64,000 bases of DNA from Squalus acanthias (Eukaryota): assembly GCA_030390025.1 (NCBI GenBank), contig CM059431.1:98644001-98708000 (forward strand), in the 5' to 3' direction. Under the pieces are notes generated by a model. It worked only from the letters and a program-made list of their open reading frames with translations. It did not search any database and had not been told where the DNA came from. A program made the translations under genes and the position numbers. This document shows, in pieces, positions 13,733 to 53,409 of this stretch (position 1 is the stretch's first letter; every line of letters begins with the position of its first letter).

Positions 13733-13805
13733 CTCAAAATAGAAGACTTCATCAAACTGGGGATTGTTGGTCTTTCGCTTTACTTTTGTTTTCTTCAACT
13801 CAGAC
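13733..13805 (-). CDS. RASA3: RASA3 coding exon (about exon 7)
   Basis: ctag/gtaagt; 73 bp; [24 protein letters not shown]. Confidence 0.95.
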
Positions 13806-19619: not shown

Positions 19620-19696
19620 CGTGTTGCCAACTTATGGCAAATGGTCCCACTGTCAGTGATGACTTCACTCAGTCTCAGCTCCAGGTGAACTTTGCC
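19620..19696 (-). CDS. RASA3: RASA3 coding exon (about exon 5)
   Basis: ttcag/gtaaga; 77 bp; GKVHLELRLSEVITDSGTICHKLAT(R). Confidence 0.95.
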
Positions 19697-20926
19697 CTGA
19701 AATAATTATCATAATGTAGTTACACAATGGGCAGTTCACCTGCATCAAGAACATACTGTGACTGCCCTCTGAAATTTACTTTCTAATAAAGGACTTGCGT
19801 TTATATATACAGAGCCTTTCACATCCTCAGGATGTCCCAAAACACTTCACAGCCAATCAATTAATTTTGTAATGCTGTCACTGTTCTTGTGTAAGGAAAC
19901 ACAGCAGCCGATTTGCTCAAGTTAATCTGTTTTAGTGATGTTGGTTGAGGGATAAATGGTGGCCCCGGGACACCGGGGAGAACTCCCCTGATCGTCTTTG
20001 AATAGTTCCATCCGACCTGAAACATCCAGCTCAGAGAGCAGACGGAGCGGAGCCTTGGTTTGCCGTCTCATCCGAAAAATGGCACCTCCGACAGTGCAGC
20101 ACTCCCTCAGTACTGCCCCTCTGACAGTGCAGCACTCCCTCAGTACTGCCTCTCCAACAGTGCAGCGCTCCCTCAGTACTGCCCCTCCGACAGTGCAGCG
20201 CTCCCTCAGTACTGCCCCTCCGACAGTGCAGCGCTCCCTCAGTACTGACCCATCAACAGTGCAGCACTCCCTCAGTACTGCCTCTCCAACAGTGCAGCGC
20301 TCCCTCAGTACTGCCCCTCCGACAGTGCAGCACTCCCTCAGTACTGCCCCTCCGACAGTGCAGCGCTCCCTCAGTACTGCCCCTCCGACAGTGCTGCACT
20401 CCCTCAGTACTGCCCCTCCGACAGTGCAGCGCTCCCTCAGTACTGCCCCTCCGACAGTGCGGCGCTCCCTCAGTACTGCCCCTCCGACAGTGCGGCGCTC
20501 CCTCAGTACTGCCCCTCCAACAGTGCGGCACTCCCTCAGTACTGCCCCTCCGACAGTGCGGCGCTCCCTCAGTACTGCCCCTCCGACAGTGCGGCGCTCC
20601 CTCAGTACTGCCCCTCCGACAGTGCGGCGCTCCCTCAGTACAGCCCCTCCGACAGTGCAGCGCTCCCTCAGTACTGCCCCTCCGACAGTGCAGCGCTCCC
20701 TCAGTACTGCAGTGAAATGTTAGGTACGGTGATGTAGTGGTTATGTTACTGGACGAGTAATCCAGAGAACGTGAGTTGAAATCCCACCCATGACAGATAG
20801 AAAATCTGAATTCAGTTTTTTTAAAAACATGACAATGAAAAGCTGGTCTCAGTAAAAGTGAGCTTGAAGCTGTCAGATTGTCGTAAATGGAATATTGGGA
20901 TTTATGGTAAGAGGTTGTGACTCTAA

Positions 20927-25837: not shown

Positions 25838-26305
25838 TCAGCCATGGCTCAGTGGGCAGCACACTCGCCTCTGAGGTCAGAAGGTTGTGGGTTCAAGTCC
25901 CACTCCAGAGACTTGAGCATAAAAATCCAGGCCGACACTCCCAGTGCAGTACTGAGGGAGCGCCGCACTGTCAAAGGTGCCATCTCTCGGATGACATGTT
26001 GAACCGAGGCCCCGTCTGCTCTCTCAGGTGGATGTAAAAGATCCCACGGCCACTATTTCAAAGAAGAGCAGGGGAGTTCTCCCTGGTATCCTGGGCCAAT
26101 ATTTATCCCTCAACCAACATCACTAAAAAAACAGATTATCTGGTCATTATCACATTGCTGTTTGTGGGAGCTTGCTGTGCGGAAATTGGCTGCTACGTTT
26201 CCCACATTACAACAGTAACCACACTTCAAAAGTACTTCATTGGCTGTAAAGCGCTTTGGGACATCCTGAGGTCGTGAAAGGCGCTATAGAAATGCAAATC
26301 TTTCT
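25838..26305 (+). mobile_element. Full-length tRNA-derived Deu-domain SINE (SacSINE1-like)
   Basis: A box tggctcagtgg, B box ggttcaagtcc; Deu-like core cggatga..aaccgaggcccc..aaagatccca..ggcacta; tail gaaaggcgctatagaaatgcaa. Other copies at 14785, 16790, 19790, 37230, 38008, 43324, 47320, 52705, 55870, 60045. Confidence 0.8.
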
Positions 26306-26333: not shown

Positions 26334-26428
26334 CTGAACTTCTGAATCAGCATCTACTGGCTGCAGTGGGAACCAGGTATCTCGATTATGATATTTCTGA
26401 AGTTCTTCTTTCTTGATGGCAACTTTAC
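26334..26428 (-). CDS. RASA3: RASA3 coding exon (about exon 4)
   Basis: acag/gtgagt boundaries; 95 bp; (G)[31 protein letters not shown]; phase fits previous exon. Confidence 0.95.
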
Positions 26429-26529: not shown

Positions 26530-27158
26530 GGAGGAAAAATTGGGTTGCTTTGCGCCTCTGTTAAATGTGGCGCCCAGGCGTGGCGCCGCTAACGCCTCCC
26601 GCGAAATTCAGCGGGAGGTTAGCGACGGCAGTGGCGCCCCTGGGCGCTGCGCTCACGGCAATGACGTCATCACTATGCGCAACATCCCGCTCGCGCCCCC
26701 TGACCTACCGCTGGACGCTGTGACCGACAGGGTCAGGGTGCCATGTTTGCGGCTGGGGCGGGGCAGCGCAAATTAAAGCGCAAGTGCTGGGCAGCCATTT
26801 TTTTTGGCCCGCCTGCCAACACCTGCTCCCTTTCGCCTCCTCCTGCGGGGTGCTGGCCACGATCGCTCACCTCGGCACTCCTCAAGCGCCGGGCTCTTTT
26901 GCCGGCACCCCATTCCCTGGTGGTCCAGCAGGACCCCGGTGCGCGCAGCACTAGGCCCCTCCCCTTTAATGAGGGGAGGGAGGCCTGTCGTATCGCAGCG
27001 CTACGAGCCGACGCGCGTGGTGCTGTTGCACATAGCGCCGCGATATTGAATGGGAGCGCCCCAAGAGGGAGGGGGAGTGCTTCCAGTAGCGCCCCGCCTC
27101 CTGCTTGGGGCGCTACCATTCAATTTCCGGTGCGGGGTTGCGACCCAATTTTTCCCCC
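26530..27158. mobile_element. Harbinger-type MITE
   Basis: TIR GGAGGAAAAATTGGGTTGC / GCGACCCAATTTTTCCCCC; TTA target-site duplication; CpG-rich. Confidence 0.85.
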
Positions 27159-27626
27159 TTATTGTTTTCTTCAAGATGTGCCAAATGCAGAACACAGGGG
27201 GGTGGGGGGGGGAGAAATTTGTGTTGCATTAGCGCTGGCACTAAAGTACTGTTGACAGCTGTAACAACGGCTGATGCCGGTTCCAGCGCTGCACACCATA
27301 TCGGTGGTGCCGGGAGCGCTGCCAGTAACCTCGATCGCCAGGGAGCTCACCATGATGGAGATCATGACGTCAGTGAGTGTGCAATGCTCACTGGACGCCC
27401 AATCTGCCAACATCGTTTTAGCCAATGTACTTACCAGCTGGAGAAAGCAGCAACAGGTTGAGGTGGTGAGCAGCACCAATCACTCGCACCTGTCAGGGTT
27501 TTGAAGTTTGAGTGGCCGTGTGCTACTTCCTGCTACTGGATGAGTTTTCCTTAGAAATTTCAAGGTATCAGGGAGTGTTCTTGCAACTACAAAACTCCCT
27601 CATTATTTTCGAAAGGCTTCAAAGTA

Positions 27627-27981
27627 CAGGAAACTCTTGTTTAACCGGCACCTAAATATCTGGAATTCTCTCTTAACCGGCAAAAATCATACTCCGAAAA
27701 CTCCTCTCAAATAACCGGCAATGTTGCCGAGTCTGAGTCCGAGTCTCCCGCGAATGCCGAGTAATCCGAAAACTCCTCTCAAATAACCGGCAATGTTGCC
27801 GAGTCCGAGTCCGAGTCTCCCGCGAACGCCGAGTTAGTCAGTGGGGGTAGTTCTCCAAAGTGCCACTACTCGGCCTCCTGGCACTGTCGTTAAAAATAGC
27901 CTCGGTAGATATAACTCTCCGTTATCCGGAACTTTTGATCAACCGGCACCACGCCAGTCCCGGATACCAAAGAGTTTCCTG
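27627..27981. mobile_element. Tc1/mariner-pogo-like MITE with an internal tandem duplication of about 72 bp
   Basis: TA-CAGGAAACTCTT...AAGAGTTTCCTG-TA (12-bp TIR, TA TSD). Confidence 0.75.
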
Positions 27982-28754
27982 TACAACACTTGCTAAAAAT
28001 CACTCACTCACTCAATGTGCAGTTGGTGTGCGGCCACAGACAGCGAATCCTCAACGTCAATGCCCGCTATCCTGGCAGCAGCCATGATGCTTTCATGCTG
28101 CGCCAGCACTCTTCCAGCCACCACATCAAGCTTGCAGCTGGCTGCTCGGAAACAAGGGCTATCCGCTCTCCACCTGGCTCATGACTCCCCTCTGCAATCC
28201 CAACACTCGTGCCCAGCACTCATATAATGACAGCCATGCTGCCACCAGGAACATCATTGAGCAGATCATCAGCTTATTGAAGCAACGGTTACGCTGCCTT
28301 GACCGCTCGGGAGGAGCCCTCCAGTACTCGCCAGAGTGGGTGTCCCATTTCATGCATGCGCCACAACTTGGCCATCATGAAGGTGTAGCCCTTGCCAGCA
28401 GGGATTACGGGACCACCTCAGCGGGAGGACGAGGGAGAGGAGGAACAGGAGGGAGGGAGGAGGCAGTGAGACAATCGGCCTTCCGGACGGGCTGTCCATG
28501 ACCGGCTCATCAGACTGCGATTTGAATGAATGAAACCCCAGATCCCCGTAGCTCACCACATCCCCATCATAGCATCCCTGTCTCACGCCATATCACAGCA
28601 TCCTCCTAGGCGCAAAGGTGAAATGAGAGAGACCACAAAATATTCCAAACACCATTAATAAATTTATCTCTAAACATATCACACATATTACATGAATTCT
28701 AATAACTAATGACCCTTGTGCCTGTCATAGTTGAATAGCTATCATTGTGTGCAA

Positions 28755-28958
28755 TGATGTGGAGATGCCGGTGTTGGACTGGGGTGGACAAATGTGAGAA
28801 GTCGCACAACACCAGGTTATAGTCCAACAGTTTTATTTGAAATCAGAAGCTTTCGGAGCGCTGCTCCTTCTTCACCTGACGAAGGAGCAGCGCTCCGAAA
28901 GCTTGTGATTTCAAATAAAACTGTTGGACTATAACCTGGTGTTGTGCGACTTCTCACA
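28755..28958. mobile_element. Penelope-like retroelement remnant (palindrome)
   Basis: 78-bp inverted arms 28793-28870 and 28881-28958 with one mismatch; 11-bp direct repeat ATTGTGTGCAA on both flanks. Confidence 0.75.
28872..28908 (+). ncRNA. Minimal type I hammerhead ribozyme motif
   Basis: UCAC-CUGACGA-A-GGAGC(AGC)GCUCC-GAAA-GC-UU-GUGA: intact core, stem I UCAC/GUGA, stem II, palindromic mini stem III. Confidence 0.7.
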
Positions 28959-30010
28959 ATTGTGTGCAAGTTGTGAGATGTGGGTGTGAGTGTTGCTAGG
29001 TAGAGATTGTTGGTGGGTGAGTGCTGGGGGTGTGGTGCATTGAGCAGTGTGTGAAGCTTGTGGTACAGATGGTGGTATGTAGCATTTGTTGAAGCCTTCA
29101 CTCACCCTGACCACCCGTGTGAGGTTGTTAAACTTCTTCCTGCACTGAGTGTGAGTCCTGGGGACCACAGTGCTGCCCCTGGCGTGCTGCGCTACCTCCC
29201 TCCACATAGTGCGGCAGACTTGTGACGAGGGCCTCCAGCCAGTTGGTAGGTACAGGACCGCCACCTTCCATCCACTGCCAAAACCAATTCCTCTAAAGCT
29301 TCAACGGGAAACCTCCGGGCTCTCTCCATGGAGCGGTGATCTGCCATCAGGATTTGTAACTAAGTGCTCCTTCTCCTTGTCCTTCTTGTTATGGTCGTTG
29401 AGGCAGCTGCACACCCAACAATGCTGAGAACGAGATGCTGCAGCATCAATGGTCCTCCCCTTTAAGTAGTGTGGCAATCATTACTTCATTACTTGAGTTT
29501 AGGCTACACCCAATATTGGTCCATCTTTTCAGTGTAACGCCAATGAGCTTGGGTTTTTAGACGAGAATCATGACTGCAATCATTTTAATTTGGAGGATGA
29601 ATTTTGCGTGCAGTCTAGACGATTTTCACCTGGCTACTTAAACATTTTGGGGTAAAAATTAGGTCGCGCCCCATTTGGGGCGCAAATATCGTCTGGACGC
29701 AAATATTAGCGCCTGGCGCTAATTATCGGCACTGACTGGAAACTTCACTTTTACCGCCCCGGGAGGTGAGTGGAGCGCTAAATCAGGCGCTGCACACCTG
29801 TCTTAAGGCGCAAAGGCCAATGAGTGAGGCGCTAACTCAACGCGCGAGCGCAGCGCAGCTGCTGCCAGTTAGCGAGGGAACACAGACACACTGGCGCCGG
29901 CCACTTCTTAAAGCGGGGGGGGGGGGCAACTTGCTCCCCAGCCACACCCTGCTCATTGCAGCCTTGAATCTCGGCCTGGAGAGACCTGTGAATCCATTTT
30001 GCTGCCAAGC

Positions 30011-31944
30011 ATGGAGAGGGTGAGAGAACGCGCTCATCGCTTCACCGAGCGGGCCTTGGATGCTCTGGTTGGCACGGTGGAGCGCAGAAGATGTATGCTC
30101 TTCCCTGAGAGTGGCAGGAGGCCTTTGCCACGCGAGTTCAGAAGAGTGTGGAGGGAGGTGGCTCAGAGCGTCTCCTCCAGGAGCATGGTGCCCAGGACCC
30201 ATACTCAATGCCGCAAAAAGTTCAACGACCTCACTCGGGTCGTCAGGGTGAGTGGCTTTTTCTCAATACCTCTCCATCCCTCCATCTCAACCTCACTCTA
30301 TGGCCAGAGGGTCTTAAAACCCCAATGCACAACACTCATCCAACACCTATGGCCCTTTCATGAAACACACACACACATTCCACACTTTGCATACAGTAAG
30401 GGCTATTCACCTATGGGAGGCACATCAGGCAACACCATGGCTGTATACAGTAAGGGCTATTCACCTATGGAGGCACATCAGGCAAGACCATGGCTGTATA
30501 CAGTAAGGGCTATTCACCTATGGGAGGCACATCAGGCAAGACCATGGCTGCATACAGTAAGGGCTATTCACCTATGGGAGGCACATCAGGCAAGACCATG
30601 GCTGTATATTTACTCAGATGCTGTCCTTTTTCTTACAGGCCAAGCTGGCGCATAATCGGAGACAGCAGCAACGGACAGGTGGAGGGCGGCCTCAGCTGCA
30701 ACCCCTCAGCGATCTTGAGGAGCGCGTCCACAGGATTGTGGCAAGCCGGGTGATCGGTCCCGTCGCCACTGGAGACGCCGACCCCGTTCTGGACAGCAAT
30801 GGTAAGGTCATCACCTTTTTGTCCTCTGTCCTTCCACTTGTCCCTCACAACACCAGCCTTTGACACTTTCAATCCAACTTGCTAACTCGCTGCACTTATC
30901 CTCCCTTACTGCCACCCTGTCCTCACGCTAAAGCCACTCTTGTACCTCCCTGCTTTCAGATGGTGATTCACCAGCTGAGGAGACGGGCCCTCAAGCTGCC
31001 AGTGGGAGTGAAGCTGCAGCCGAGGAGGAAGAGGAAGCCGGAGCATCAGTGCCACCCTCTCCCGAGGAAGCCCATGCCCACACTGGGAACACGCCTTCCC
31101 TGGAGGGGAGCAGGGGGGAAGGGTCTGATGAGGGTGAAGCTCCAGGACCCAGCGGGCTGCAGCAACGCCATGGGGGGGGGGGGGTAGGGAAGAACGGGGG
31201 CCTTCTCCCCAGAGGGAGAGTATGCCAGACACTCCTACTGCAATGGACGCAGAGGAGGAGCGGCTGATCGCAGAAATGAACACCCAGGCGGTGGGCATGC
31301 ACACTGAGCTCATGGGTGCAGTGGGAAGGGTGCCCGAATGCATTGAGTCACTGGCAAGGAGTGTGGAGCACTTCGCTGTAGCACAGGCGGATGCCACACT
31401 AACGCTTAGTGCTGCAATTCAGTCACTGGCTGCCGTGATCCCATCTCTGACTGCTCTCATACAGACTCAGATTGAGGCCACGCGAGCACAGACTGCTGCC
31501 AACCTCGATGGTTCGTGCACATGTCCCCGGGGCTGTCACCGCGCCGCAGCAGGCCAGCAATCTGTTCTCCGGTAGATTGCTCCGGATGCTGAAGTGCTGC
31601 CCCGTGGGAGTGCCAGTGTGTCGGGCGAGCAGGGAGTTGCTGTCCTCTCTCACGATGACAGCATTCCTGCTGCCAACACTGTCACTTCTCCACTGCACTT
31701 GCCACCGCCTGTAGGACAGACTGCTGCCGCCCATGCAGAGTTGGTGCAGTCTGCAGCCGGGCCCTCCAGGCCCAGAACTGGTCGAGGCCGTCCTTCAGGG
31801 GCATCTGCAGTGTCAGGGTCTGACGAGCAGCAGCCTTCCACCAGCCTTGCTGCAGCCACTGAGGTCCTATTACGGAGGAGCAGTAGGGTTAGAAGGGGGG
31901 AAGTGCACAAGGGAAGGAGATCACCCTCGAAGGGCAAAAAGTAG
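30011..31944 (+). pseudogene. Myb/SANT gene of copy A; exons 30011-30247, 30639-30801, 30960-31944; disrupted
   Basis: Same exon structure as copy B; expanded G-run at 31172-31184 shifts the frame; in-frame TAG at 31573-31575. Confidence 0.8.
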
Positions 31945-32238
31945 GAGGTGTGACAAAATGCTGGTCATTTTTTTATTAAAGTTTGAGGTTCATGGTCCAA
32001 CTTTTGTTTAGTGTTTTGGACATTATCTCCAGGTTGTGAGAACCAGTTATGTTATTGACTGTTTTTTTGTGTTTATTTCTATGAGTTTGTCATGAGGAAT
32101 TGACACACACAGAGTTTGTAAAATAAATAAGTTTCTGTATTCAAAATATACATGGTTGGTGGTTGGAATTATTGGTGCCTTGGCCGGCTTAGGGGTTGCG
32201 TGCTGGGTTCATTAATGTTGTTAGCAATGGCAGGGGCC

Positions 32239-33400
32239 CTAGAAGCGGCTTGCTATTAGCCGTTGACGGACGGCCCTTGCAGTTTGACCATTGTGGGCCA
32301 CCCTCCCGCCTTGGTGCTGCTGATGATCATCCTCCTCGTCCTCTTCCTCCTCTTCCTCCTCCTCCTCTGGTGGTGCTCCAAGGCCTGGTGGCATTGGCTG
32401 GGTCTTGAGGATTGCCATGTTATGCAACATGCAGCACACGACTACGAAGTTCGATACTCGCTCAGGCGAGTACTGCAGGGCTCCTCCAGAATGGTCGAGA
32501 CAGCGGAACCGTTGCTTCAGCACGCCGATTGTGCGCTCAATTATGTTCCTGGTAGCTTGATGGCTCTCATTGTACCGCAGCTCAGCAGGGGTGTTGGGCG
32601 TACGGAGCGGTGTCATCAGCCAGGTGCTCAATGCATACCCCTTGTCCCCGAGAAGCCAACCAACTGGCTGATGCGGTGCCTCGAAAAGTTCTGCCACAGT
32701 AGTCTGGCGCAGGATAAAAGCATCGTGGCAGCTGCCAGGATACTGGGCATTGACAGCGAGTATCAGCTGTCTGTGGTCACAGACCAACTGAACATTCAAG
32801 GAATGGAACCCCTTTCTGTTCCTGAATTCCTCGGCATTCTCATGCGGAGCACGCAAAGCCACATGCGTGCAGTCAATGGCGCCCTGCACCATGGGGAAGC
32901 CCGCTACCCTCGCAAAGCCCAGAGCGCGGTCACGCTGCTTGTCTGGGGTCATGGGGAAAGAGATGAACTCTCGTCTCCTTTTAAAGAGGGCATTTGTGAC
33001 CTGCCGGATGCAGGCAATGCACCGCGAACTGGGAGATATTGGCGAGGTCCCCAGCAGCAGCTTGAAATGAGCCAGTAGCGTAAAAGTTGAGAGCCACTGT
33101 GACCTTCACTGCCACCGACAGAGACGTCCTGGACCTCAGTTGAGGCTGCAGATCTGGCTGCAGCAGGTGGCAGAGCTCAGTGACCACCTCCTTGCTGAAT
33201 CGCAGCCTTCGCAAACACAGCTCCTCAGACATATGGATGTAGGAGAGCTGTTCACGATATACCCTGGGAGGGTAAGCTCTCCTGTACATACGCTTGATGG
33301 CCCTCCTCCGTCTGGCCATCATTGCCACTCTCTCTCTGCGTCTCTGTATCCTCCGATTCAGCTGGAACAGGACGACGCCCCCAATCAGTGCAGCCCCCAT
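32239..33400 (-). pseudogene. Harbinger transposase of copy A, frameshifted
   Basis: Split into ORFs 32981-33469 and 32239-32952 by a 1-bp insertion near 33013 (caggcaatg versus cagcaatg in copy B); DDE motifs retained. Confidence 0.85.
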
Positions 33401-33984
33401 ATTCTCTTTGCAAGCAAAGTAATGAAGGACAGCAACTAAAGTACCAGCGAAGTTAGGATCAATAGGCAAAACTACCTCACAAAGCGTTGAGTCAATGTAG
33501 AAGTCTCTCTTTCTCTCTCTCCGAATCTCTCTCTCTCTCTCAGAACGAGTGGTGCAAAAATGTCGACCACAGAAAAAGACAGGAAGAGGCCCCCTTTAAA
33601 TAGCGCCCCCCCAGCCCCACAGCGATTGATAGCGTTCCAGTCTTCCGGTCGTTGGAAGCGCCAGGCGGTAAGGCAGGGGGCGCCACTCAATTTCCGCTCC
33701 GGGGCGCCACAAGGGCGTTGCACCATGGAATGACGTCACAATCTGCGCGCGCAGGTGGTCGCAGCGGTAAGTTTTAGCGCCGCTGCACAATCTCTAGTTA
33801 AGTTCCCGAGCGGCGCAAACATCGCTGCGCCCGGGCGTTAGCGGCTTTGCGCCCCATTAGCGCCCTCTTAAGGCGCTAACGGGAGGCGCAACCAACTGAA
33901 TTTTTACCCCTTTTAGTCTAAACACGGCCCATTCCTTGGCTATAACGAATTTCTAGCCCAGGGTGTTTTGGAACCTGACTTATT

Positions 33985-36500: not shown

Positions 36501-39500
36501 CCTCTCCGCCTCTCTCTCCTCTTTTAAGACGCTCCTTAAAACCTGTCTCACCTGCCCTAATATCTCTCAAATGTGGCTCGGTGCCAAATTTTTGTCTGAT
36601 TATTGCTTCTGTGAAGCGCCTCGGGAAGTTTTACCACGTTAAAGGCGCTGTATAAATGCAGGCTGTTTCCCAGAAAGAGTGCGGAGATCAAACAGAAAGC
36701 TTCATCAGTTATTGGTTTTATCATGTGGTCCTTAGTGTCTTTGGAAGGTAGCAGACTGGCCTTTCACAAATTTGTCAAACAGTAAAAGAACACCTGGATA
36801 ACAGCAGAAACACAACATGCATTCTTACAGTTGTTCAGGTTAGCTCGAATCTTAATTAGTAAAATATAATGAGAGTCTTGTGCTAAACTATGATACAAGT
36901 AACATTCTTACATCGTGAGTCTTTTCATTCTCTCACCAGCCATGGGAACTATCTGCAATAATTCCATTTGGTAATTAACGGCAGTATTTGCACCTTATCT
37001 TTCTGCTCTTCTTGAAGTTTCACAACTCTTTTCTGAATTAGTTTCATGGCAGACACAGTGTTGTCCGTGCTCCTGCTACAGCGCCGTGCGTGCTTCATTC
37101 TTGGGTGTCATCTTCTACCAAATATCTCCAGAACGGCACACACCAAGGATCCCTCATCTGTAGATCTTAGTTCTTGCTAACAAGAACTGCTCACTCCAGT
37201 GTTACATCAATGAATTTTTCTGCATTCATGTCCTGGGCCAATATTCATCCCTCAACCAACATCATTAAATTAAATTAGCTGGTCATTTATCTCATTGCTG
37301 TTTGTGGGAGCTTGCTGTGCACAAATTGGCTGCTGCGTTTCCCTACATTACAACAGTGACTACACTTCAAAAGCACCTTGGGACGTCCTGAGGTTGTGAA
37401 AGGCGCTATATAAATGCAAGTCTTTCTATCTAAAAAAGCGAAAGATCTGCCCGGGATCTTTAAGACAACAAGAGATTAGTTCCTTCAAAAAAGTGTGGAT
37501 TCCCTAACTCTCCCCCACACCCCCTTTCATCAGAGAATTTATCCAGAGCTCTCAAAGGGTTAAGTGCCACGTTGCAGAGTTTATGAGTTTGTATAACTTA
37601 CAATTCCTCTTTATGAGTCTTAAAGCAATGAATAATCTAATACTGAGTCATCTTGTGTGAATAAAGTCAGTGTAACCATTACATACCCTTTAAATCGAGC
37701 TTGACTTCAAGCCTTCATTGAGCAGATTCTGATGATGTAATTTGGTGAGGTCCTACTATCCTCCTCTCCCAATATTGAACAAATCTCTCCCACTGCCCCA
37801 TCCTGTCTGTTGTGTGATGAGTTGATGAGTCAAATAGTCATTCGAATTTCTCAATCCCTGCGGCCACTCAAGTACTTTTTGATTGTTCACCATTTTTACT
37901 TCCCAAAAAGGCAGCCGTTCTGGTATTGTAATGTGCTTAAAGTATGAATGCAACAAAACATTTTGATGTTTTCTAAAATAAATACAATTAAGCAAATACC
38001 TTAAGGTTATCGGATGAGATGTTAAACCGAGAACTCAACTGCCCTCTCAGGTGGACGTAAAAGATCCCACGGCCACTATTTCGAGGAAGAGCAGGAGAGT
38101 TCTCCCTGCTGTCCTGGGGCCAAAATTTTTCCCTCCACCACTGTCACTAAAACAGATGATCTGATCAGTATCACATTGCTGTTTGTGGGAGCTTGCTGTG
38201 CGCAAATTGGCTGTCGCGTTTCCCTACATTGCAACAGTGACTACACTCCAAACAAGTACTTCATTGGCTGTGAAGCGCTTTGGGGACGTCCTGAGGTTGT
38301 GAAAGGTGCTGGAGAAATGCAAGTTCATTCTATATAACTGAGGATAGTCAATAAATGTCGGCCTTGTTAGTGAGACCCACATCCCAAGGATGAATATAAA
38401 ATGTTGTAGTAAAGAAAATATATTTGTGATGCTAAAAATGAGGCATCTTTCAAATTATAAATCCTCAATGTACAATTAAACCGGCAAGGAACTTGGACTG
38501 TGTAAACAAGGTAACTTCCTTCCAAACAGTTTTAAAATGCTAAATGTCTATTCTTAACTCCTTATAGTCCCAATTCTAGGCAACAAAAAGGTATTTCAAG
38601 GCGTTTCAGTTTAAAGCTCTGGGCAATATGAACGCACAGGACAGCACTGCTACTGTCATCCGTCTCCTCTGATTCAAGTCTGACGCATGACTGCAGATTA
38701 TGCAATCTGTTTATCTGAACATACAGCATGATGATGCATTCTGGAAACACTCGGGTGGTGGGGAAACATTAAGCAGAATGAATAATGCTGGAATGGTTCG
38801 AAACAGAAAAATAAATGACAACAAGGCTGAAGGGCAGGGTTTACAGATCAGCACTTGGAGTAGATCAGCACTCAGCCTTGGGTCTCCAGGCAAAGCTCAC
38901 TCCTGCAGTCATCAAATTATCAAAATTCCCCCCGAGCTCTCTGCGCTCCGCCAATTCTGGCCTCTTGCACATCCCCGATTTTAATCGCTCCACCATTGGC
39001 GGCCGTGCCTTCAGTTGCCTGGGCCCTGAGCTCTGGAATTCCCTCCCTAAACCGCTCCGCCTCTCTCCGCCTTTAAGACGTTCCTCAAAACCTACCTCTT
39101 TGACTAAGCTTTTGGTCACCTGTACTAATATCTCATGTGGCTCGGTAGCACTCTCGCCTCTCGCACTCAGAAGATTGTGGGGGGAAAAATTCAGTCGCGC
39201 CCCATTTGAGGCGCAAATATCGTCCGGGCGCAAAAATTAGCGCCTGGCGCTAATTATCGCCACTGACTGGAAACTTCACTTTTAACGCCCCTAGAGGTGA
39301 TTGGAGCGCTAAATCAGGCGCTGCACACCTGTCTTAAGGCGCAAAGGCCGAGGAGTGAGGTGCTAACTCAGAGCGCGAGCGCAGCGCAGTTGCTGCCAGT
39401 TAGCGAGGGAACACAGACACACTGGCGCCGGCCAGTTCTTAAAGGGGGGGGCGATTTTGCTCCCCAGCCACACCCTGCTCATTGCAGCCTTGAATCTCGG

Positions 39501-39536
39501 CCTGGAGAGACCTGTGAATCCATTTTCCAGCCAAGG

Positions 39537-41347
39537 ATGGAGAGGGTGAGAGAACGAGCTGAGCGCTTCACCGAGCGGGCCTTGGATGCTCTGGTTGGCG
39601 CGGTGGAGCGCCGAAGAGCAATACTGTACCCAGAGAGTGGCAGGAGGCCTTTGCCGCGCGACTACAGAAGAGTGTGGAGGGAGGTGGCTCAGCGCGTCTC
39701 CTCCAGGAGCATGGTGCCCAGGACCCATGTCCAATGCCGGAAAAAGTTCAACGACCTCACTCGGGTCGTCAGGGTGAGTGGCTTTTTTGCAATACCTCTC
39801 CATCCCTCCATCTCAACCTCACTCTATGGCCAGAGGGTCTTAAAACCACAATTAACAACACTCATCCAACACCTATGGCCCTTTCATGAAGCACACACAC
39901 ACATTCCATACTTTGCATACAGTAAGGGCTATTCACCTATGGGAGGCACATCAGGCAAGACCATGGCTGTATACAGTAAGGGCTATTCACCTATGGGAGG
40001 CACATCAGGCAAGACCATGGCTGTATACAGTAAGGGCTATTCACCTATGGGAGGCACATCAGGCAAGACCATGGCTGTATATTTACTCAGAAGCCGTCCT
40101 TTTTCTTGCAGGCCAAGTTGGCGCATAATAGGAGACAGCAGCAACGGACAGGTGGAGGGCAGCCTCAGCTGCAACCCCTCAGCGATCTTGAGGAGCGCGT
40201 CCACAGGATTGTGGCAAGCCGGGTGATCGGTCCCGTCGCCACTGGAGACGCCGACCCCGTTCTGGACAGCAATGGTAAGGTCATCACCTTTTTGTCCTCT
40301 GTCCTTCCACTTGTCCCTCACAACACCAGCCTTTGACACTTTCAATCCAACTTACTAACTCACTGCACTTATTCCTCCCTTACTGCCACCCTGTCCTCAC
40401 GCTAAAGCCACTCTTGTACCTCCCTGCTTTCAGATGGTGATTCACCAGCTGAGGAGACGGGCCCTGAAGCTGCCAGTGGGAGTGAAGCTGCAGCCGAGGA
40501 GGAAGAGGAAGCCGGAGCATCAGTGCCACCCTCTCCCGAGGAAGCCCATGCCGACACTGGGAACACGCCTTCCCTGGAGGGGAGCAGGGGGGAAGGGTCT
40601 GATGAGGGTGAAGCTCCGGGACCCAGCGGGCTGCAGCAACGCGATGGGGGTAGGGAAGCTCGGGGGCCTTCTCCCCGGAGGGAGAGTATGCCAGTGAGTC
40701 CTGCTGCACTGGACGCAGAGGAGGAGCGGCTGATCGCGGAAATGAACACCCAGGCGGTGGGCATGCACACGGAGCTCATGGCTGCAGTGGGTAGGGTGCC
40801 CGAATGCATTGAAGCACTGGCAAGGAGTGTGGAGCACTTCGCTGCAGCGCAGGCGGATGCGACACTGAAGCTCAGTGCTGCAATTCAATCTCAGACTGCT
40901 CTCATGCAGACTCAGATTGAGGCCACGCGAGCACTGTCTGCTGCCATCCTCGCTGGTTCGTTCATATTTCTCCGGGGCTCTCACCGCGCCGCAGCAGGCC
41001 AGCAATCTGTGCCCCGTGGGAGTGCCAGTGTGCCGGTCGAGCAGGGAGTTGCTGTCCTCGCTCAAGATGACAGCATTCCTGCTGCCACCACTGTCACTTC
41101 TCCACTGCAGTTGCCACCGCCTGTAGGACAGCCTGCTGCCGCCCATGCAGAGTTGGTGCAGTCTGCAGCCGGGCCCTCCAGGCCCAGAACTGGTCGAGGC
41201 CGTCCCTCAAGGGCATCTGCATTGTCAGGGCCTGACAGTCAGCAGCCTTCCACCAGCCTTGCTGCAGCCACTGAGGTCCCATTGCGGAGGAGCAGTAGGG
41301 TAAGAAGGGGGGAAGGGCGCACGGGAAGGAGTTCACCCTCGATGTAG
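39537..41347 (+). CDS. Harbinger Myb/SANT-like DNA-binding protein; exons 39537-39773, 40112-40274, 40434-41347; about 437 aa
   Basis: RFTERALDALV..WREVAQRV..RTHVQCRKKFNDL is a Myb/SANT (MADF/NAIF1-type) signature; two GT-AG introns (gtgagt/ttgcag and gtaagg/tttcag) join the three exons in frame with no stops. Confidence 0.85.
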
Positions 41348-41658
41348 GAGGTGTGACAAAATGCTGGTCATTTTTTTATTAAAGGCCGAGGTTCGTGGTC
41401 AAACTTTTGTTGAGTGTTTTGCACATGATCTCCAGGTTGTGAGAACCAGTTATGGTAATGACTGTTTTTTTGTGTTTATTTGTATGAGTTTGTCATGAAG
41501 AAATGACACACACAGAGTTTGTAAAATAAATAAGTTTTGGTACTCAAAATATACATGTTTGGTGTTTGGAATCATTGGTGCCTTGGCCGGCTTAGGGGTT
41601 GCGTGTTGGGTTCATTCATGCTGTTCTCAATGGCAGAAGCCATTTCCACAGCAGGGGC

Positions 41659-42810
41659 CTAGAAGCGGCTTGCTATCAGCCGCTGACGGACGGCCCTTGC
41701 AGTTTCACCATTGTGGGCTGCCCTCACGCCTTGGTGCTGCTGCTGATCATCCTCCTCCTCCTCTTCCTCCTCCTCCTCTGGTGGTGCTCCAAGGCCTGGT
41801 GGCATTGGCTGGGTCCTGAGGATTGCCATGTTATGCAGCATGCAGCACACAACTACGATGTTGGAAACTCGCTCAGGCGAGTACTGCAGGGCTCCTCCAG
41901 AATGGTCGAGACAGCGGAACCGTTGCTTGAGCACGCCGATTGTGTGCTCCACGATGTTCCTGGTAGCTTGATGGCTCTCGTTGTACCGCAGCTCAGCAGG
42001 GGTGTTGGGCGTACGGAGCGGTGTCATCAGCCAGGTGCTCAGTGGATACCCCTTGTCCCCGAGATGCCAACCAACTGGCTGATGCGGTGCCTCGAAAAGT
42101 TCTGCCACAGTAGTCTGGCGCAGGATGAAAGCATCGTGGCAGCTGCCAGGATACTGGGCATTGACAGCGAGTATCAGCTGTCTGTGGTCACAGACCAACT
42201 GAACATTCAAGGAATGGAACCCCTTTCTGTTCCGGAAATCCTCGGCATTCTCATGCGGAGCACGCAAAGCCACATGCGTGCAGTCAATGGCGCCCTGCAC
42301 CATGGGGAAGCCCGCTATCCTCGCAAAGCCCAGAGCGCGTTCTTGCTGCTTGTCTGGGGTCATGGGGAAAGAGATGAACTCTCGTCTCCTTTTAAAGAGG
42401 GCATTTGTGACCTTCCTGATGCAGCAATGCACCGCGAACTGGGAGATATTGGCGATGTCCCCAACAGCAGATTGAAATGAGCCAGTAGCATAAAAGTTCA
42501 GAGCCACTGTGACCTTCACTGCCACCGACAGAGACGTCCTGGACCTCAGTTGAGGCTGCAGATCTGGCTGCAGCAGGTGGCAGAGCTCAGTGACCACCTC
42601 CTTGCTGAAGTGCAGCCTTCGCAGACACTGCTCCTCAGACATATGAATGTAGGAGAGCTGTTCACGATATACCCTGGGAGGGTAAGCTCTCCTGTACAGA
42701 CGCCTGTTGGCCCTCCTCCGTCTGGCCATCATTGCCACTCTCTCTCTGCGTCTCTGTCTCCTCCGATTCAGCTGGCGCAGGACGACGCCCCCCATCAGTG
42801 CAGCCCCCAT
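41659..42810 (-). CDS. Harbinger (HARBI1-like) DDE transposase, 383 aa
   Basis: Uninterrupted ORF from ATG 42810; motifs LNFYATGS, GAIDCTHV, NRKGFHSLNVQLVCD, PGSCHDAFIL, LGDKGY, YNESH..TRNIVEHTIGVLKQRFRCL, CCMLHN; acidic tail. Confidence 0.93.
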   Translation of the reverse strand: MGAALMGGVVLRQLNRRRQRRRERVAMMARRRRANRRLYRRAYPPRVYREQLSYIHMSEEQCLRRLHFSKEVVTELCHLLQPDLQPQLRSRTSLSVAVKVTVALNFYATGSFQSAVGDIANISQFAVHCCIRKVTNALFKRRREFISFPMTPDKQQERALGFARIAGFPMVQGAIDCTHVALRAPHENAEDFRNRKGFHSLNVQLVCDHRQLILAVNAQYPGSCHDAFILRQTTVAELFEAPHQPVGWHLGDKGYPLSTWLMTPLRTPNTPAELRYNESHQATRNIVEHTIGVLKQRFRCLDHSGGALQYSPERVSNIVVVCCMLHNMAILRTQPMPPGLGAPPEEEEEEEEEDDQQQHQGVRAAHNGETARAVRQRLIASRF

Positions 42811-43003
42811 ATCTCTTAGCAAGCAAAGTTATGAAGGCCAGAAACCAAAGTCCCAGCGAAGTTAGGATGAGTAGCCAAAACTACCTCACACAGCGTTGAC
42901 TCAATGCAGAAGTCTCTCTTTCTCTCTCTCCGAATCTCTCTATCTCTCTCAGAACGAGTGGTGCAAAAATGTCCACCACAGAGAAAGACAGGAAGAGGCC
43001 CCC

Positions 43004-43011
43004 TTTAAATA
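43004..43011 (-). promoter_or_regulatory. Candidate TATA-like box (TATTTAAA) upstream of the transposase
   Basis: About 200 bp upstream of the ATG; identical in copy A (33595-33602). Confidence 0.4.
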
Positions 43012-43927
43012 GCGCCCCCCCCGAGCCCCACAGCGAATGATAGCGTTCCACTCTACCGGTCGTTGGATGCGCCAGGCGGTAAGGATGGGGGGGCGCCACT
43101 GAAATTCTGCTCCGGGGCGCCACAAGGGCGTTGCACTCTCGTATGATGTCACAATCTGCGCGCGCAGGAGATCGCAGCGATAAAGTTTAGCGCCGCCGCA
43201 AAATGTCTAGTTAAGTTCCCGAGCGGCGCAAACATCGCTGCGCCCGGGCGCTAGCTGCTTTGCGCCCCATTAGCGCCCTCTTAAGGCGCTAACGGGAGGC
43301 GCAACCAACTGAATTTTTCCCCCTGTGTGTTTTAGTCCCACTCCAGTGACTTCAGCACAAAATCTAGGCTGACACTCCCAGTGCAGTACTGAGGGAGCGC
43401 CGCACTGTCGGAGGGGCAGCACTGAGGAAGTGCTGCACTGTCGGAGGGGCGGTACTGAGGGAGCGCCGCACTGTCGGAGGGGCAGTACTGAGGGAGCGCC
43501 GCACTGTCGGAGGGGCAGTACTGAGGGAGCGCCGCACTGTCGGAGGGGCAGTACTGAGGGAGTACTGCACTGTCGGAGGTGCAGTACAGAAGGAGCGCTG
43601 CATTGTCGGAGGTGCCATCTTTCGGATGAGATGTTAAACCGAGGCCCCGTCTGCCCTCTGAGATGGATGTAAAAGATCCCATGATACTATTTCAAAGAGG
43701 AGCAGGGGAGTTATCCCCGGTGTCCTGGGCCAATATTTTTACCTCAACCAACATCATTATAACAGATTATCTGGTCATTTACTCTGTTGCTGTTTGTGGG
43801 ATCTTGCTGTACGGAAATTGGTTGCTACATTCCCTACATTACAACAGTGACTACACTTTAAGAGTACTTCATTGGCTGTGGATGTCCTGAGGAATGTGTA
43901 ATATAAGGGCAAGGTCTTACTTTCATT

Positions 43928-47125: not shown

Positions 47126-47539
47126 CTAAACTCAGTACATCCCCAGCAGTGTAATTAGGATTCCTGCCAATCTGGGTCAGCCAGGAGTTAAATCAGTTCT
47201 CTTGCACAACAGCCATTCCACTTAAACAAAACACGAGAAAGAAAGGCAGTATTTCTACAATACAAAACTCATTAACTCCCTTGGCAGAGTAGGCCAAGAA
47301 AGAAAGGAAACATCTGAGACATAAGCAGCACCTTCACACATTCTCAGTACATCGCAAAGCGCTACACACCCAAGGTGCTGACTGTAGCGGTCAATCACTG
47401 TTGTTACGTAGGCTAGCACAGCGGCTAATTCCATACAGCAAGATCCCACAAACAGAAAATCTGTTCTGCTTTGCTGGCGATAGTTCAGGATGAATATTAG
47501 CCAGGACACCAGGAGTTCTCCCTACTCCACTTCAAATAG

Positions 47540-48838
47540 TACTCAGTACTGCCCCTCCGACAGTGCAGCGCTCCCTCAGTACTGCCCCTCTGACAGTGCA
47601 GCACTCCCTCAGTACTGCCCCTCCGACAGTGAGGCGCTCCCTCAGTACTGCCCCTCCGACAGTGCGCCGCTCCCTCAGTACTGCCACCCCGACAGTGCGC
47701 CGCTCCCTCAGTATTGCCCCTCCGACAGTGCGGCGCTCCCTCAGTACTGCCCCTCCGACAGTGCAGCACTCCCTCAGTACTGCCCCTCCGACAGTGCAGC
47801 GCTCCCTCAGTACTGCACCTCCGACAGTGCGGCGCTCCCTCAGTACTGCCCCCCCGACAGTGCGGCGCTCCATCAGTATTGCCCCTCCGACAGTGCGGCG
47901 CTCCCTCAGTATTGCCCCTCCAACAGTGCAGCGCTCCCTCAGTACTGCCCCTCCGACAGTGCGGCGCTCACTCAGTACTGTCCCTCCGACAGTGCAGCAC
48001 TCCCTCAATACTGTCCCTCCGACAGTGCGGCGCTCCCTCAGTACTGCCCCTCCAACAGTGCAGCACTCCCTCAATACTACCCCTCCGACAGTGCAGCGCT
48101 CCCTCAGTACTGACCCTCCGACAGTGCGGTGCTCCCTCAGTACTGACCCTCCGACAGTGCGGCGCTCCCTCAGTACTGACCCTCCGACAGTGCAGCACTC
48201 CCTCAATACTGCCCCTCCGACAGTGCATTACTCCCTCAGTACTGCCCCTCCGACAGTGCGGCGCTCCCTCAGTACTGACCCTCCGACAGTACAGCACTCC
48301 CTCAGTACTGCCCTTCCGACAGTGCAGCGCTCCCTCAGTACTGCCCCTCCGACAGTGCAGCACTCCCTCAATACTGCCCCTCCGACAGTGCATTACTCCC
48401 TCAGTACTGCCCCTCCGACAGTGCGGCGCTCCCTCAGTACTGACCCTCCGACAGTACAGCACTCCCTCAGTACTGCCCTTCCGACAGTGCAGCGCTCCCT
48501 CAGTACTGCCCCTCCGACAGTGCAGCGCTCCCTCAGTACTGACCCTCCGACAGTGCGGCGCTCCCTCAGTACTGCCCCTCCGACAGTGCGGCGCTCCCTC
48601 AGTACTGCCCCTCCGACAGTGCGGCACTCCCTCAGTACTGCCCCTCCGACAGTGCGGCGCTCCCTTAGTACTGCCCCTCCGACAGTGCGGCGCTCCCTCA
48701 GTACTGTCCCTCCGACAGTGCAGCGCGCCCTCAGTACTGCCCCTCCGACAGTGCAGCACTCCCTCAGCACTGCCCCTCCGACAGTGCGGCGCTCCCTCAG
48801 TACTGCCATTCTGACAGTGCAGCGCTCCCTCAGTACTG
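47540..48838. repeat. 33-bp minisatellite, longest array; others at 20085-20710, 43382-43615, 49540-50037, 60145-60478
   Basis: Same unit as the 14885 array; always within Deu-SINE sequence. Confidence 0.93.
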
Positions 48839-50454
48839 ATGTAAAGGATCCCATGGCGCTTTTCAACAACAACAACTTGCATCGACACAGTGTTTTTAAC
48901 CTCCAGAAACGTCCCAAGGCATTTCACTGAGTGTTATTCGAAGAAGAGCAGGGAGAAGCAATGGGCAACATTCCTCCCTCAACCAACACCACCAAAAACT
49001 GCTTAACTGGTTACTCATCACGTGCTGGTGATGTTTATGGGACCTTGCTGTGCGCAAATTGGCCCATCACAGCAGCGGCTTGAAGCACTTTGGGAGATGA
49101 TGAGCTATGGCCTACAATGATCAGGGTGCTTGTTAAATGTTCGGTTTTGATTTCACCAGCACTCCCGGCAACCTCCAGAGTGAACCTCCTGAGACATCTG
49201 GCTTTGTTCCAGCCAGTTGCAGCTGCATCAGGCTCCGAGCACAACATTCAGCAGGCAAACCACAACACTGCTCGGATTCCAAGGCAGAACAAAAATGTAT
49301 TGTATCAGCCAGTCTGTCATATAAGATAAACAAAAGACCTTGAGTCATAAGCCATACTGTTCTTATTTACTTAGCCATGCAATGGTGAAATCTGATATAT
49401 ATTACAGGACATCAGTAATTGCCAGGTATGTCAGCCCTGGCTCAGTGGGTCGCTCTCTCGTCTCTGAGTCAGAAGGTCGTGGATTCAAACCCCGGCTCCT
49501 GAGATTTGACAACAACAATAATCTGGGCTGGCACTCCCAGTGCAGTACTGAGGGAGCGCCGCACTGTCGGAGGGGCAGTACTGAGGAAGCTCCGCACTGT
49601 CGGAGGGGCAGTACTGAGGGAGTGCCACACTGTCGGAGGGGCAGTACTGAGGGATCGCCGCACTGTCGGAGGGGCAGTACTGAGGGAGCGCCGCACTGTC
49701 GGAGGGGCAGTACTGAGGAAGTGCTGCACTGTCGGAGGGGCAGTACTGAGGGAGCGCCGCACCGTCGCAGGGGCAGTACTGAGGGAGCGCCGCACTGTCG
49801 GAGGGGCAGTGCTGAGGGAGCGCCGCACTGTCGGAGGGGCAGTGCTGAGGGAGCGCCGCACTGTCGGAGGGGCAGTACTGAGGAAGTGCTGCACCGTCGG
49901 AGGGGCAGTACTGAGGGAGCGCCGCACTATCGGAGGGGCAGTGCTGAGGGAGAGCCACACTGTCGGAGGGGCAGTGCTGAGGGAGAGCCACACTGTCGGA
50001 GGGGCAGTACTGAGGGAGCCCCGCACTGTCGGAGGGGCTTGAACCCACGACCTTCTGACTCAGAGACGAGAGTGCTACCCACTGACAGCTCAGACTCCAC
50101 AGGTAGGAGTGGACGTCGCCCTTCAGAATATAAACTGCTGCCGCTGTAAGCTTTCAACTGATGAAAATAACAGGAGAAATACAAGAAACAGATGTCGCAA
50201 GAATTGTCTGATAATCGCTCCTGTTCAGTGCCTTGGGACGTTTTCCTACATTAAAGGCGCTATATAAATGCAGCTTGTTGCTGCTGTTTAACTGGAGAAC
50301 ATGCGCCTCAGTCAGAGGTCCTCAGGTGTCACTCTCTGCCATGCCCAGATAACTGGCTGCTAGTCAGTCTGCTCCCTGGGTCAGCAATCACATGCCTCCT
50401 GTGCCCTCCCAGGCTGCCCTCGCTTCCTCCGCTGTTGGCAATGGCAGTTATACT

Positions 50455-51280: not shown

Positions 51281-51729
51281 AGACAGTTATACTCAGTTAT
51301 ACTCAGTCTGAAGGGCAGAAGGGGTCTCTATACGATTCACTTTTCTCACTGCTGTGGTGACAGTGATCCAAGGTTTTAAACTCCAGCTCTGACCTGGAGT
51401 TAAATAAATGCTCTCCCACCCTGGAGTTTATCACCCACCCTGCATAACACGGCACAAGTTGTCCAAGATTGGCTCTTGGCATGGACCGATAATTGTCACG
51501 AAGCCATTTCTGATGTGATGAATCCTTCGTGCCACGCCGGAGACGGACCAATTGTCTGTTGGTGCCTTCTACAGACTGTGTAAAACTAGGTGCACATACA
51601 CTCTTTCCCTTAAATGAGTATAAACAATGGAAAGTAAGAGTTAACATGAGGACTTGGCACTTGGCAAAGTGCCAGCAACAGCAGACTGATCCGAACATGT
51701 AATAACTGATCAGCAAGGGTTCCACTTAC

Positions 51730-51833
51730 CAATAATTGAATCCCTCCGAAAGACATCTCTGTCAAAAATATAAAACGATAGGTAGCGAAAAGTTCTTGGA
51801 ATTTCACAATAGAAGTCTTCACCATAAAAGGGG
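51730..51833 (-). CDS. RASA3: RASA3 coding exon (about exon 3), C2A domain
   Basis: tttcag acceptor and gtaagt donor; 104 bp; translates [34 protein letters not shown](G), recognised as RASA3. Confidence 0.95.
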
Positions 51834-53409
51834 CTGAAATGAGAGACGGTCTTTGTCAGTTTATTTGCCTACAGTTGTTGGAGAAAATAAAAGCTAGTTT
51901 TCTTTTTAAATCGTCGCTCCGCTACTAAACCTTCGGTTTGCATTCAGTCAAAAAGGTTATTGGGTACGGTGGTGTAGTGGCTACAACACTGGATTAATAA
52001 TCCTGAGAGCGTGAGTTCAAATCCCAACAGGGCAGTTTCAGAATGAGAATTCAGTTTAAAGAAATAAAAAGCCAGGGTCAGTAAAAGTGACCGTGAAGCT
52101 GTCGGGATTGTTGTAAAAACCCAACTGGTTCACTGATGTCCTTTAGGGAAGGAAACCTGCCGTCCTTACCCGGTCTGGGCCTACACGTGACTCCAGGCCC
52201 ACAAGCCTAGCAAGCCACTCAAGGTGTATCAAACTTAGGGCGACTGGGGGATGGGCAATAGATGCCGGCCTTGCCAGTGTCACCCACACTGAGAACAGAT
52301 AAAAGAAAAATAATACAGCGAAAGATGGCTTGCACAGAACTCTGGAGTGAATTGTGTCAATGATAATACTGCAAACAATACAGTAAACAATTTTGAAATG
52401 GTCACTCACTGGAACACTGTGGTTTGAAGGGACAACAGCTGGGAATAATCTCAGCCCCGAGAACTTCAAAGTACGGCAACAAACCTTCCATCTTTGATCC
52501 TTCAAACTCTGAATTACTCCCAGATGCCCCTTTAGGTTGTTCAGCGCCTGCTTTGGCACAGTTAGTGCTTAATAGTGCAAGCAGCGGATTTCACCATGGC
52601 TGGAGACAAACAGCCAGAATGTGCCGTACGGGAATCCCGACAACACGAGGAAAGTGAGGGATGAGAAACAGGTCATTCGGCCCCACAAAACCCACCCCTC
52701 TAAAAGAAAGAAAGACTTGCACTTTCACAACCTCAGGACGTCCCAAAGCGCTTTACAGCCAATGAAGTACTTTTTGAAGTGGAGTCACTGTTGTAATGTA
52801 GGAAATGCGGCAGCTAATTTGCGCACAGCAAGCTCCCACAAACAGCAATGTGATAATGACCAGATAATCTATTTTTAGGTTCTGGTTGAGGGATAAATAT
52901 TGGCCCCAGGACACTGGGGAGAACTCCCCCTGCTCTTCTTCGAAATAGTGGCCATGGGATCTTTAACGACCACCTGAGGGGGCAGACGGGGCCTCGGTTT
53001 AACGCCTCGTCTGAAGGACGTACGAAACAGAGACTGTGGACAAGTGTTGGAGCAGCCCAGCACACCTGTCCCTGTTTCATGGCTGCCAATTTCTTATTCT
53101 TATTCACTCTCGGGATGTGGGCGTCGCTGGCAAGGCTGGCATTTATTGCCCATCCCTAATTGTCCTTGAGAAGGTGGTGGTGGGCCTTCCTCTTCAACAG
53201 CTGGTAGCGGTTGAGATACACCCGAGTGACTTGCTCGGCCACTTCAGAGGGCAGTTAAGAATCAACCACGTTGGTGTGGGACTGGAGTTACATATATGCC
53301 CAGACCGGGTAAGGTTTCCTTCCCTAAAGGACATTAGTGAACCAAGTTGGGTTTTTACGCCAATCCGACAGGTCACCGAACCACATAAGGAGATATTAGG
53401 ACAGGTGAC

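Follow-up and report, generated by a model that had tools for sequence, protein, structure and literature searches.

A 64,000-nucleotide stretch of the Squalus acanthias genome (assembly GCA_030390025.1, contig CM059431.1, positions 98,644,001 to 98,708,000; hereafter, the window, always taken at its full length) contains a two-component Harbinger transposon at 39179-43323, denoted here copy B, and a sister element, copy A, at 29649-33910. Copy B is an addition to the known PIF/Harbinger (PHIS) superfamily. The interpretation that we favor, with a probability of roughly 0.72, is that copy B, a full-length and comparatively young member of an elasmobranch Harbinger family with a very high copy number, has been decaying since its insertion and now probably supplies little or no working transposase, the expressed master being another copy. 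A preliminary description of this DNA had proposed the element as a candidate still-active transposon. That proposal finds no support: a private histidine at transposase position 249 (H249) lies beside the catalytic residue D252, and the RNA contigs mostly carry the letters of other sublineages. The private replacement of leucine by histidine next to the active site makes copy B more likely to be a quietly decaying copy than an active source; we infer the loss of function from H249, the age of copy B, and the mechanism set out at the end.

The transposase gene, on which this argument turns, has the following features.

41659..42810, minus strand: transposase open reading frame (ORF) of 383 amino acids (aa), ATG at 42810, stop at 41659; DDE_Tnp_4 match with E=1.9e-41
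42283..42285, minus strand: D176, first catalytic Asp (IDCTH); Asp in 97 of 117 homologs
42064..42066, minus strand: H249 codon; the family has Leu, with a locus-private change at 42065
42055..42057, minus strand: D252, second catalytic Asp (GDKGY); Asp in 92 of 114 homologs
41947..41949, minus strand: E288, catalytic Glu; Glu in 75 of 116 homologs, within helix 271-297 of the structural model

The complete 383-aa transposase with its D176, D252 and E288 had been recognized correctly in the preliminary description. In an AlphaFold model of the protein (mean pLDDT 88.8), the second catalytic Asp follows a strand and the Glu lies within a helix, and H249 sits three residues N-terminal of D252, inside strand 248-250. 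None of the 114 aligned homologs has His at this position (L 99, I 8, F 3, M 2, V 1, P 1), which is hydrophobic in 113 of them, a stricter constraint than that on the D252 column itself. Three histidines in place of the Arg or Leu of copy A had been singled out earlier as potentially impairing. The differences are real, and H249, being both unmatched among the homologs and private to the locus, retains that suspicion; H67 is a rare state, found in 3 of 97 homologs, and H289 was rejected as a lesion, with His present in 35 of 116 homologs. Structural databases added little: a PDB sequence search returned two matches only, both low-complexity, and Foldseek against the PDB gave no matches at E<=0.001, its top entries (piggyBac, TnsB and Tn5 transposases) being uninformative on residue 249.

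The status of this change in the family was assessed in sequencing runs. The run search listed 24 runs, of which 20, from 12 studies and nine labelled organisms, contain the element or part of it; the word shares of the element in the runs of labelled organisms are between 0.31 and 0.76, with none at 1.0. Four runs were aligned as contigs, namely, X3 and X16 (organism A), X6 (organism B), and X18, with about 55% of X3 read. Logan contigs drop rare variants, short variant contigs bias similarity downwards, and the variant evidence comprises 40 of 188 variant rows, chosen for difference, 20 of which were tabulated. X3 agrees with the unique left flank of copy B at 150 of 150 letters, at a depth of 15.1, and possibly derives from the animal used for the assembly; in X6, 3 of 180 letters differ. 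At position 42065, the Leu allele accounts for 715,929.6 of the total depth of 715,944.1 in X3, the remainder being 14.5, compared to 15.1 for the unique flank, and it is the only allele in X6, X16 and X18. With His249 at single-locus depth, the haplotype of copy B has not been propagated; near-identical sister copies of B were not detected, the 42065 haplotype being single-locus in the X3 contigs from about 55% of the run. The second near-private site is 40771, and these two of the 20 tabulated sites look private in every run that covers them.

The family as a whole is exceedingly abundant. In X3, the summed depth over the element, which is not a copy number, is 190,000-2,450,000 per bin, and crude bounds put the copies at 1,500-47,000 for the transposase core and at 30-1,000 for the intron site with the lowest coverage among those examined; among the 59,625 X3 records, 6,601 are 99% or more alike and 35,000 are 90-95% alike. 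An empty-site joint was not seen among the 15 of 71 joints listed, all of which exceed a depth of 30 and would hide any single-locus joint, and metagenome contig scans with right-end and left-end patterns found no loci. As a separate observation, at six of the 20 tabulated sites the letter of copy B makes up 60-87% in the run of organism B and 0-4% in that of organism A, despite the flank matching organism A, which could reflect introgression, horizontal transfer or old sublineages that sorted unevenly.

The second gene of the element, encoding a Myb/SANT protein, lies on the opposite strand and converges with the transposase gene.

39537..39773, plus strand: Myb/SANT exon 1; Myb_DNA-bind_5, E=2.6e-10
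39774..40111, plus strand: intron 1, GT-AG, holding about three copies of a 53-bp unit
40112..40274, plus strand: Myb exon 2, joined at GT-AG boundaries
40275..40433, plus strand: intron 2, GT-AG, 159 nt; its spliced joint occurs in sequencing runs
40434..41347, plus strand: Myb exon 3, with an acidic low-complexity linker, a helical segment (~aa 261-320), a Pro/Arg-rich tail and the stop
41375..41530: AATAAA hexamers between the convergent genes, at 41525 on the plus strand and at 41375 and 41475 on the minus strand

The three-exon structure proposed earlier, with GT-AG introns and a product of about 437 aa, holds, as do the AATAAA signals, which occur on both strands: the joined exons encode 437 aa without internal stops, and the join of exons 1 and 2 aligns without gaps to the sawshark protein P0009 (51 identities in 112). 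A search with exon 1 for longer proteins gave one match among 471 candidates. The helical C-terminal segment of the preliminary description is only partly borne out, in that aa ~261-320 are free of proline and helix-favoring; a Pro-rich tail of about 115 aa comes after the segment, which is thus internal and not C-terminal. The predicted splicing is likewise confirmed in part. The spliced intron 2 joint is present in X16 (three contigs) and X18 (one contig) and absent from the DNA runs X3 and X6, whereas the intron 1 joint was not seen among the 15 of 71 joints listed. No element-containing run among those listed is recorded as RNA; X16 and X18 are our guess for probable RNA because the GT-AG joint is present there and absent from the DNA runs. 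The non-B letter stands alone in 34 of the 40 listed rows in X16, including all ten in the transposase ORF, and in X18 at nine of those ten. With rows selected for difference and contigs that lose rare variants, this indicates that other copies dominate transcription and does not imply that copy B is silent. The Myb genes of A and B are also separated by in-frame insertions or deletions of 21, 33 and 9 bp (at 40888, 41010 and 41342, in B coordinates), and the RNA-type contigs of X16 have the A-type 33-bp and 9-bp forms, so that the expressed lineage there is A-like.

The ends of copy B and its target site were delimited as follows, with TIR standing for terminal inverted repeat and TSD for target-site duplication.

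39170..39175, plus strand: left half of the palindromic target site, GAAGAT, from comparison with the Harbinger3_DR consensus
39176..39178, plus strand: left TSD, TGT, from a register test against the target motif
39179..39179, plus strand: sixth (extra) G at the left terminus or, less favored, the fourth base of a 4-bp TSD, TGTG
39179..43323: Harbinger element copy B, 4145 bp under the 3-bp TSD reading; 39180-43323 is the span within the perfect TIRs
39180..39195, plus strand: left TIR, GGGGGAAAAATTCAGT, 16 bp, pairing perfectly with the right TIR
43308..43323, minus strand: right TIR, 16 bp, perfect partner of the left TIR
43324..43326, plus strand: right TSD, TGT, duplicating the left TGT
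43327..43332, plus strand: right half of the target site, GTGTTT, from comparison with the Harbinger3_DR consensus

The TIRs are indeed perfect, as reported in the preliminary description; the chance of any such 16-bp pair over end positions of 2 kb x 2 kb is ~1e-3. The published target consensus of the zebrafish element Harbinger3_DR is AAACACCWGGTCTTT (PMC3016246), and the target halves of copy B match it at 10 of 12 flanking positions, a background level attained at four of 63,970 window positions. When the ends are read as symmetric, the flanks become TGTG/TGTG in copy B and TTTT/TTTT in copy A, which initially hinted at a 4-bp TSD; 4-bp duplications with both ends of B perfect would thus fit both copies. 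The motif match favors 3 bp, with 10/12 in the 3-bp register against 7/12 in the 4-bp register for B, and 7/12 (TTT) against 3/12 for A; moreover, the 4-bp reading fails at a non-autonomous element of the window with the same type of TIRs, which is flanked by TTA/TTA. We accordingly rejected a 4-bp TSD by this register test and hold it to be quite improbable as a property of the family; no report of a 4-bp Harbinger TSD was found in the literature search. The TSD of copy B is, then, probably 3 bp (TGT). This reading requires the extra left G, leaving six G at the left end against five C at the right, and the sixth G could have arisen by slippage or be a homopolymer error of the assembly. For mPing, the majority of terminal bases are reported to be important if the two ends are altered together (PMC9921582).

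The CpG-rich termini noted in the preliminary description are real (observed/expected 0.81 and 0.96, against 0.51 for the window), but as a sign of activity they fail. The termini of copy A (0.79 and 1.01) and of the non-autonomous element (0.87) are equally rich; because copy A is frameshifted, the feature is uninformative on activity, and we dismissed it as the mark of a young copy. Between A and B, CpG sites show just a slight excess of transitions, at 25 of 209 sites compared to 30 of 403 GpC sites.

Several observations weigh against a decaying copy B and in favor of a living relative. The TIRs and TSD of copy B carry no mutations, its extra left G may be an assembly error, the depth remainder of 14.5 at 42065 could be a third allele, and its private changes are incompletely counted, with 40 of 188 variant rows and about 55% of X3 behind the count; judging from the sequence comparisons, copy B may lie only ~0.05-0.3% from its parent. 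The transposase has been under purifying selection between A and B (dN/dS, the ratio of nonsynonymous to synonymous substitution rates, is 0.46, p=0.009, for the whole protein, 0.21, p=0.003, for the core, and 0.84 for Myb), which is expected if the lineages linking the two were transposing. At 39293, 40118, 40362 and 42154, the letter of copy B represents 3-8% of the depth in X3 and 0-0.5% in X6, suggesting that the B sublineage multiplied recently, once organisms A and B had diverged. As the contigs drop rare variants, B may still be expressed at a low level; one X18 contig agrees with B at all but 3 of 220 letters of the catalytic core, and the family splices Myb intron 2 in both X16 and X18. 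The enriched alleles, the few private sites, the unmutated TIRs and TSD, the purifying selection, the splicing and the X18 near-match jointly make a living lineage close to B plausible. We therefore regard continued mobility of some family lineage as a tentative possibility; the more specific scenario, of a multi-thousand-copy shark family with coexisting, recombining sublineages, at least one of which, near copy B, expanded once the host species had separated from its relatives and still moves, is conceivable, though it is not what we would expect.

That copy B itself is a currently active autonomous element, with His249 tolerated, both genes expressed in the germline and the insertion recent or polymorphic, appears unlikely. 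Such activity would accord with the intact ORFs, DDE triad, four splice dinucleotides, TIRs and TSD, as well as with the splicing of intron 2 in the family and the enrichment of sublineage alleles in organism A compared to organism B, but has to contend with a His249 that is absent from all 114 homologs and, being at single-locus depth, unpropagated, with non-B letters in the RNA contigs at 10/10 (X16) and 9/10 (X18) listed transposase sites, and with the extra left G under the best TSD reading. It is improbable that His249 and the extra G are assembly errors, or the private allele of one individual, and that the real locus is fully intact: although the extra base lies within a G run and the frameshifts of copy A are also changes in G-run length, T>A is no homopolymer error, and the X3 contig of single-locus depth without the family letter at 42065 fits a real allele. 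Least probable of all, to the point of being barely worth entertaining, is that copy B is on its way to domestication as a HARBI1/NAIF1-like host gene, with its genes kept for host function while catalysis fades. Vertebrate Harbinger genes have been domesticated repeatedly (PMC9392472) and both ORFs are open, but the TIRs and TSD are retained, related copies number in the thousands, B gives no sign of expression of its own, and the Myb dN/dS between A and B is 0.84.

Under the favored reading, that of a young copy in decay, the open frames call for no special explanation. In a neutral simulation, both ORFs, the DDE triad and the splice sites were kept in 17-59% of copies at 0.5% divergence, and 3-38% of copies still looked intact at 1%. 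The germline mutation rate reported for a shark is 7e-10 per generation (PMC10587355), and transposable element (TE) copies in Callorhinchus are reported to change by ~1e-3 per site per million years (PMC5499810); at such slow rates, intact-looking copies persist for long and, in a huge family, many copies with open ORFs are to be expected. On a rough estimate, two private changes in 4.1 kb correspond to about 0.5 million years at the Callorhinchus TE rate, or to 0.3-3.5 million generations at the germline rate. The assertion of the preliminary description that intact vertebrate copies are uncommon finds no support in the sea krait Laticauda colubrina, for which 269 intact Harbinger copies are reported, along with one in L. 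laticaudata that has RNA across both genes (PMC8437027). Across eukaryotes, Han et al. count 88 potentially active PIF/Harbinger families, and they list 11 NuwaI families (PMC4482050).

Copy B shares the window with several relatives, among them the following two.

29649..33910: sister copy A, TSD TTT, with frameshifts in the transposase (33013) and in Myb exon 3 (31172); 5.65% substitutions from B
26530..27158: non-autonomous element (miniature inverted-repeat transposable element, MITE) with the same TIR type as copy B; TSD TTA/TTA, without a 4-bp duplication

Both frameshifts of copy A are changed G-run lengths. Its differences from B are distributed as a mosaic, with 14 in 760 positions of the interval 39860-40620 and 219 in 3362 elsewhere (p=3e-8, for an interval picked post hoc), pointing to recombination or conversion among sublineages; the distance between A and B, being mosaic and shaped by selection, was rejected as a clock. 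The low-difference tract covers the end of intron 1, exon 2, intron 2 and the start of exon 3. Transversions outnumber transitions between A and B (141 to 92), as they do at the X3 variant places (83 to 55), which is unusual for neutrally decaying vertebrate DNA. A third, older Harbinger with deletions is located at 27208-33959, with an uncertain left boundary, a transposase remnant at 28005-28523 (~70% nucleotide identity) and a Myb remnant at 29099-29255; past its right end at 33959 come the letters AGG GTGTTTT, in which the target half-site recurs. Some 50 bp from the end of this old element, copy A is nested, and a hairpin-type long inverted-repeat insertion (28760-28960) lies inside the remnant. 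A probable Harbinger MITE at 7123-7833 has GGGCCAGAATTT ends and ATT/AAT flanks, and its site scores 10/12 against the Harbinger3_DR target.

The assignment of copy B to the broadly defined PHIS superfamily rests on a DDE_Tnp_4/HARBI1-type transposase with the triad, a Myb/SANT second gene, short TIRs starting with A or G, and a 3-bp TSD, conditional on the extra left G, with the 4-bp alternative disfavored, that comes with an extended target preference. The TWA duplication of the narrower PIF/Harbinger definition (Han 2015) is not seen, with TGT at B, TTT at A, and TTA at the related MITE only, from a small number of insertions; nor is copy B a single-copy gene devoid of TIRs and TSD, as would be a domesticated HARBI1/NAIF1-type gene, given its TIRs, TSD and very high copy number. 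The earlier identification as a vertebrate two-component Harbinger is thus upheld, with both frames open and homologs in elasmobranchs. Among the best 120 of 415 matches, the named close homologs of the transposase all come from sharks and rays, with a top identity of 67%; the family's own transposase is therefore apparently not annotated in that collection. Many of these homologs, in Pristiophorus, Narcine, Mobula, Heptranchias, Carcharodon, Scyliorhinus and others, are labelled 'putative nuclease HARBI1'; they belong to the same transposase clade as copy B, and the name is an automatic label. Three full-length HARBI1-like proteins of 377-378 aa from Pristis, Scyliorhinus and Rhincodon (P0024, P0025 and P0044), 47-52% identical to that of B, possibly represent a conserved, domesticated elasmobranch gene derived from this clade.

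Among the described systems, the closest in organization is zebrafish Harbinger3_DR (Sinzelle et al. 2008, as cited in PMC3016246, PMC2836001 and PMC9392472), which likewise combines DDE and Myb-like genes with a 3-bp TSD in a 15-bp palindromic target. Its central triplet is CWG, in contrast to TGT (B) and TTT (A) here, as compared through published descriptions, and it was rebuilt from a consensus, whereas the frames of copy B are natively open. The NuwaI group (Han et al. 2015, PMC4482050) has TIRs starting with GGG, DDE and Myb/SANT ORFs, a length of ~4.1-4.5 kb and animal hosts, all as in copy B, but its defining CWG TSD is absent at both insertions at hand (TGT, or ACA on the other strand, at B, and TTT at A), and cartilaginous fishes are absent from the listed NuwaI hosts. 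The sea krait element Harbinger-Snek (PMC8437027) is also a vertebrate family with a very high copy number, intact two-ORF copies and RNA over both genes, and has been proposed to be possibly still transposing; it is set apart by description, having entered one genus by horizontal transfer, whereas the family of copy B occurs in several labelled organisms and has many elasmobranch relatives. The rice Ping/Pong-mPing system (PMC2836001, PMC9921582) shares two proteins, a 3-bp TSD, MITE derivatives and an extended target preference, and differs in its plant TWA target, 9-bp preference and proven natural activity. In the partially accessible literature that we searched, neither this shark family nor a natively active vertebrate Harbinger is described, although Repbase, Dfam and the family tables of PMC4482050 may contain the family.

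The genomic setting of the insertion comprises a repeat and a host gene.

39136..39178, plus strand: 5' part of a short interspersed nuclear element (SINE)-like repeat, the insertion host of B, which resumes at 43327
13733-13807, 19619-19696, 26334-26426 and 51728-51838, minus strand: host-gene exons with two C2 domains; Pfam matches on two of the four exons

The rejoined flanks of copy B align without gaps around the insertion point to an uninterrupted SINE-like copy at 25855-25920, which serves as an empty-site proxy; the interrupted repeat may be SacSINE1-like. Copies A and B and the old Harbinger all lie within the intron bounded by the exons at 51728-51838 and 26334-26426 of the C2-domain gene, presumably a RASA3/GAP1-like one by its motifs. 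A 33-bp unit that belongs to the SINE-like repeat body is expanded in tandem, in both orientations, at 43378-43600, 19941-20846 and 47410-50038.

The history of copy B can be pictured by analogy with Harbinger3_DR and Ping/Pong (PMC2836001, PMC9392472). The Myb/SANT protein would bind the TIRs, import the DDE transposase into the nucleus and position it at the element's termini, whereupon the transposase would excise the element and insert it into a loose palindrome of 15 bp whose central 3 bp become duplicated. Copy B entered the SINE at such a palindromic site, within an intron of the C2-domain gene, and has subsequently gained a few private changes, among them Leu249His in the beta-strand before D252 and, probably, one left-end G; proteins supplied by other copies may still be able to move it in trans.

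Descriptions of Harbingers from elasmobranchs are few. In 2022, a survey reported no Harbinger in the elephant shark and called for the study of other cartilaginous fishes (PMC9179366), and a 2025 paper on the grey reef shark gives Tourist/Harbinger as the commonest DNA transposons (PMC12498223). Taken by itself, copy B is what a large family ordinarily produces, and the locus provides a clean model of an autonomous shark family, in its ends, target and exon structure, that is useful for annotation and as a base for activity testing. If a lineage of the family is, indeed, mobile, its natural, unreconstructed transposase-Myb pair would constitute a working vertebrate Harbinger, semi-selective for a loose 15-bp palindrome and ready for use as an integration system, and the family would still be generating insertions in hosts whose mutation rate is among the lowest in vertebrates.

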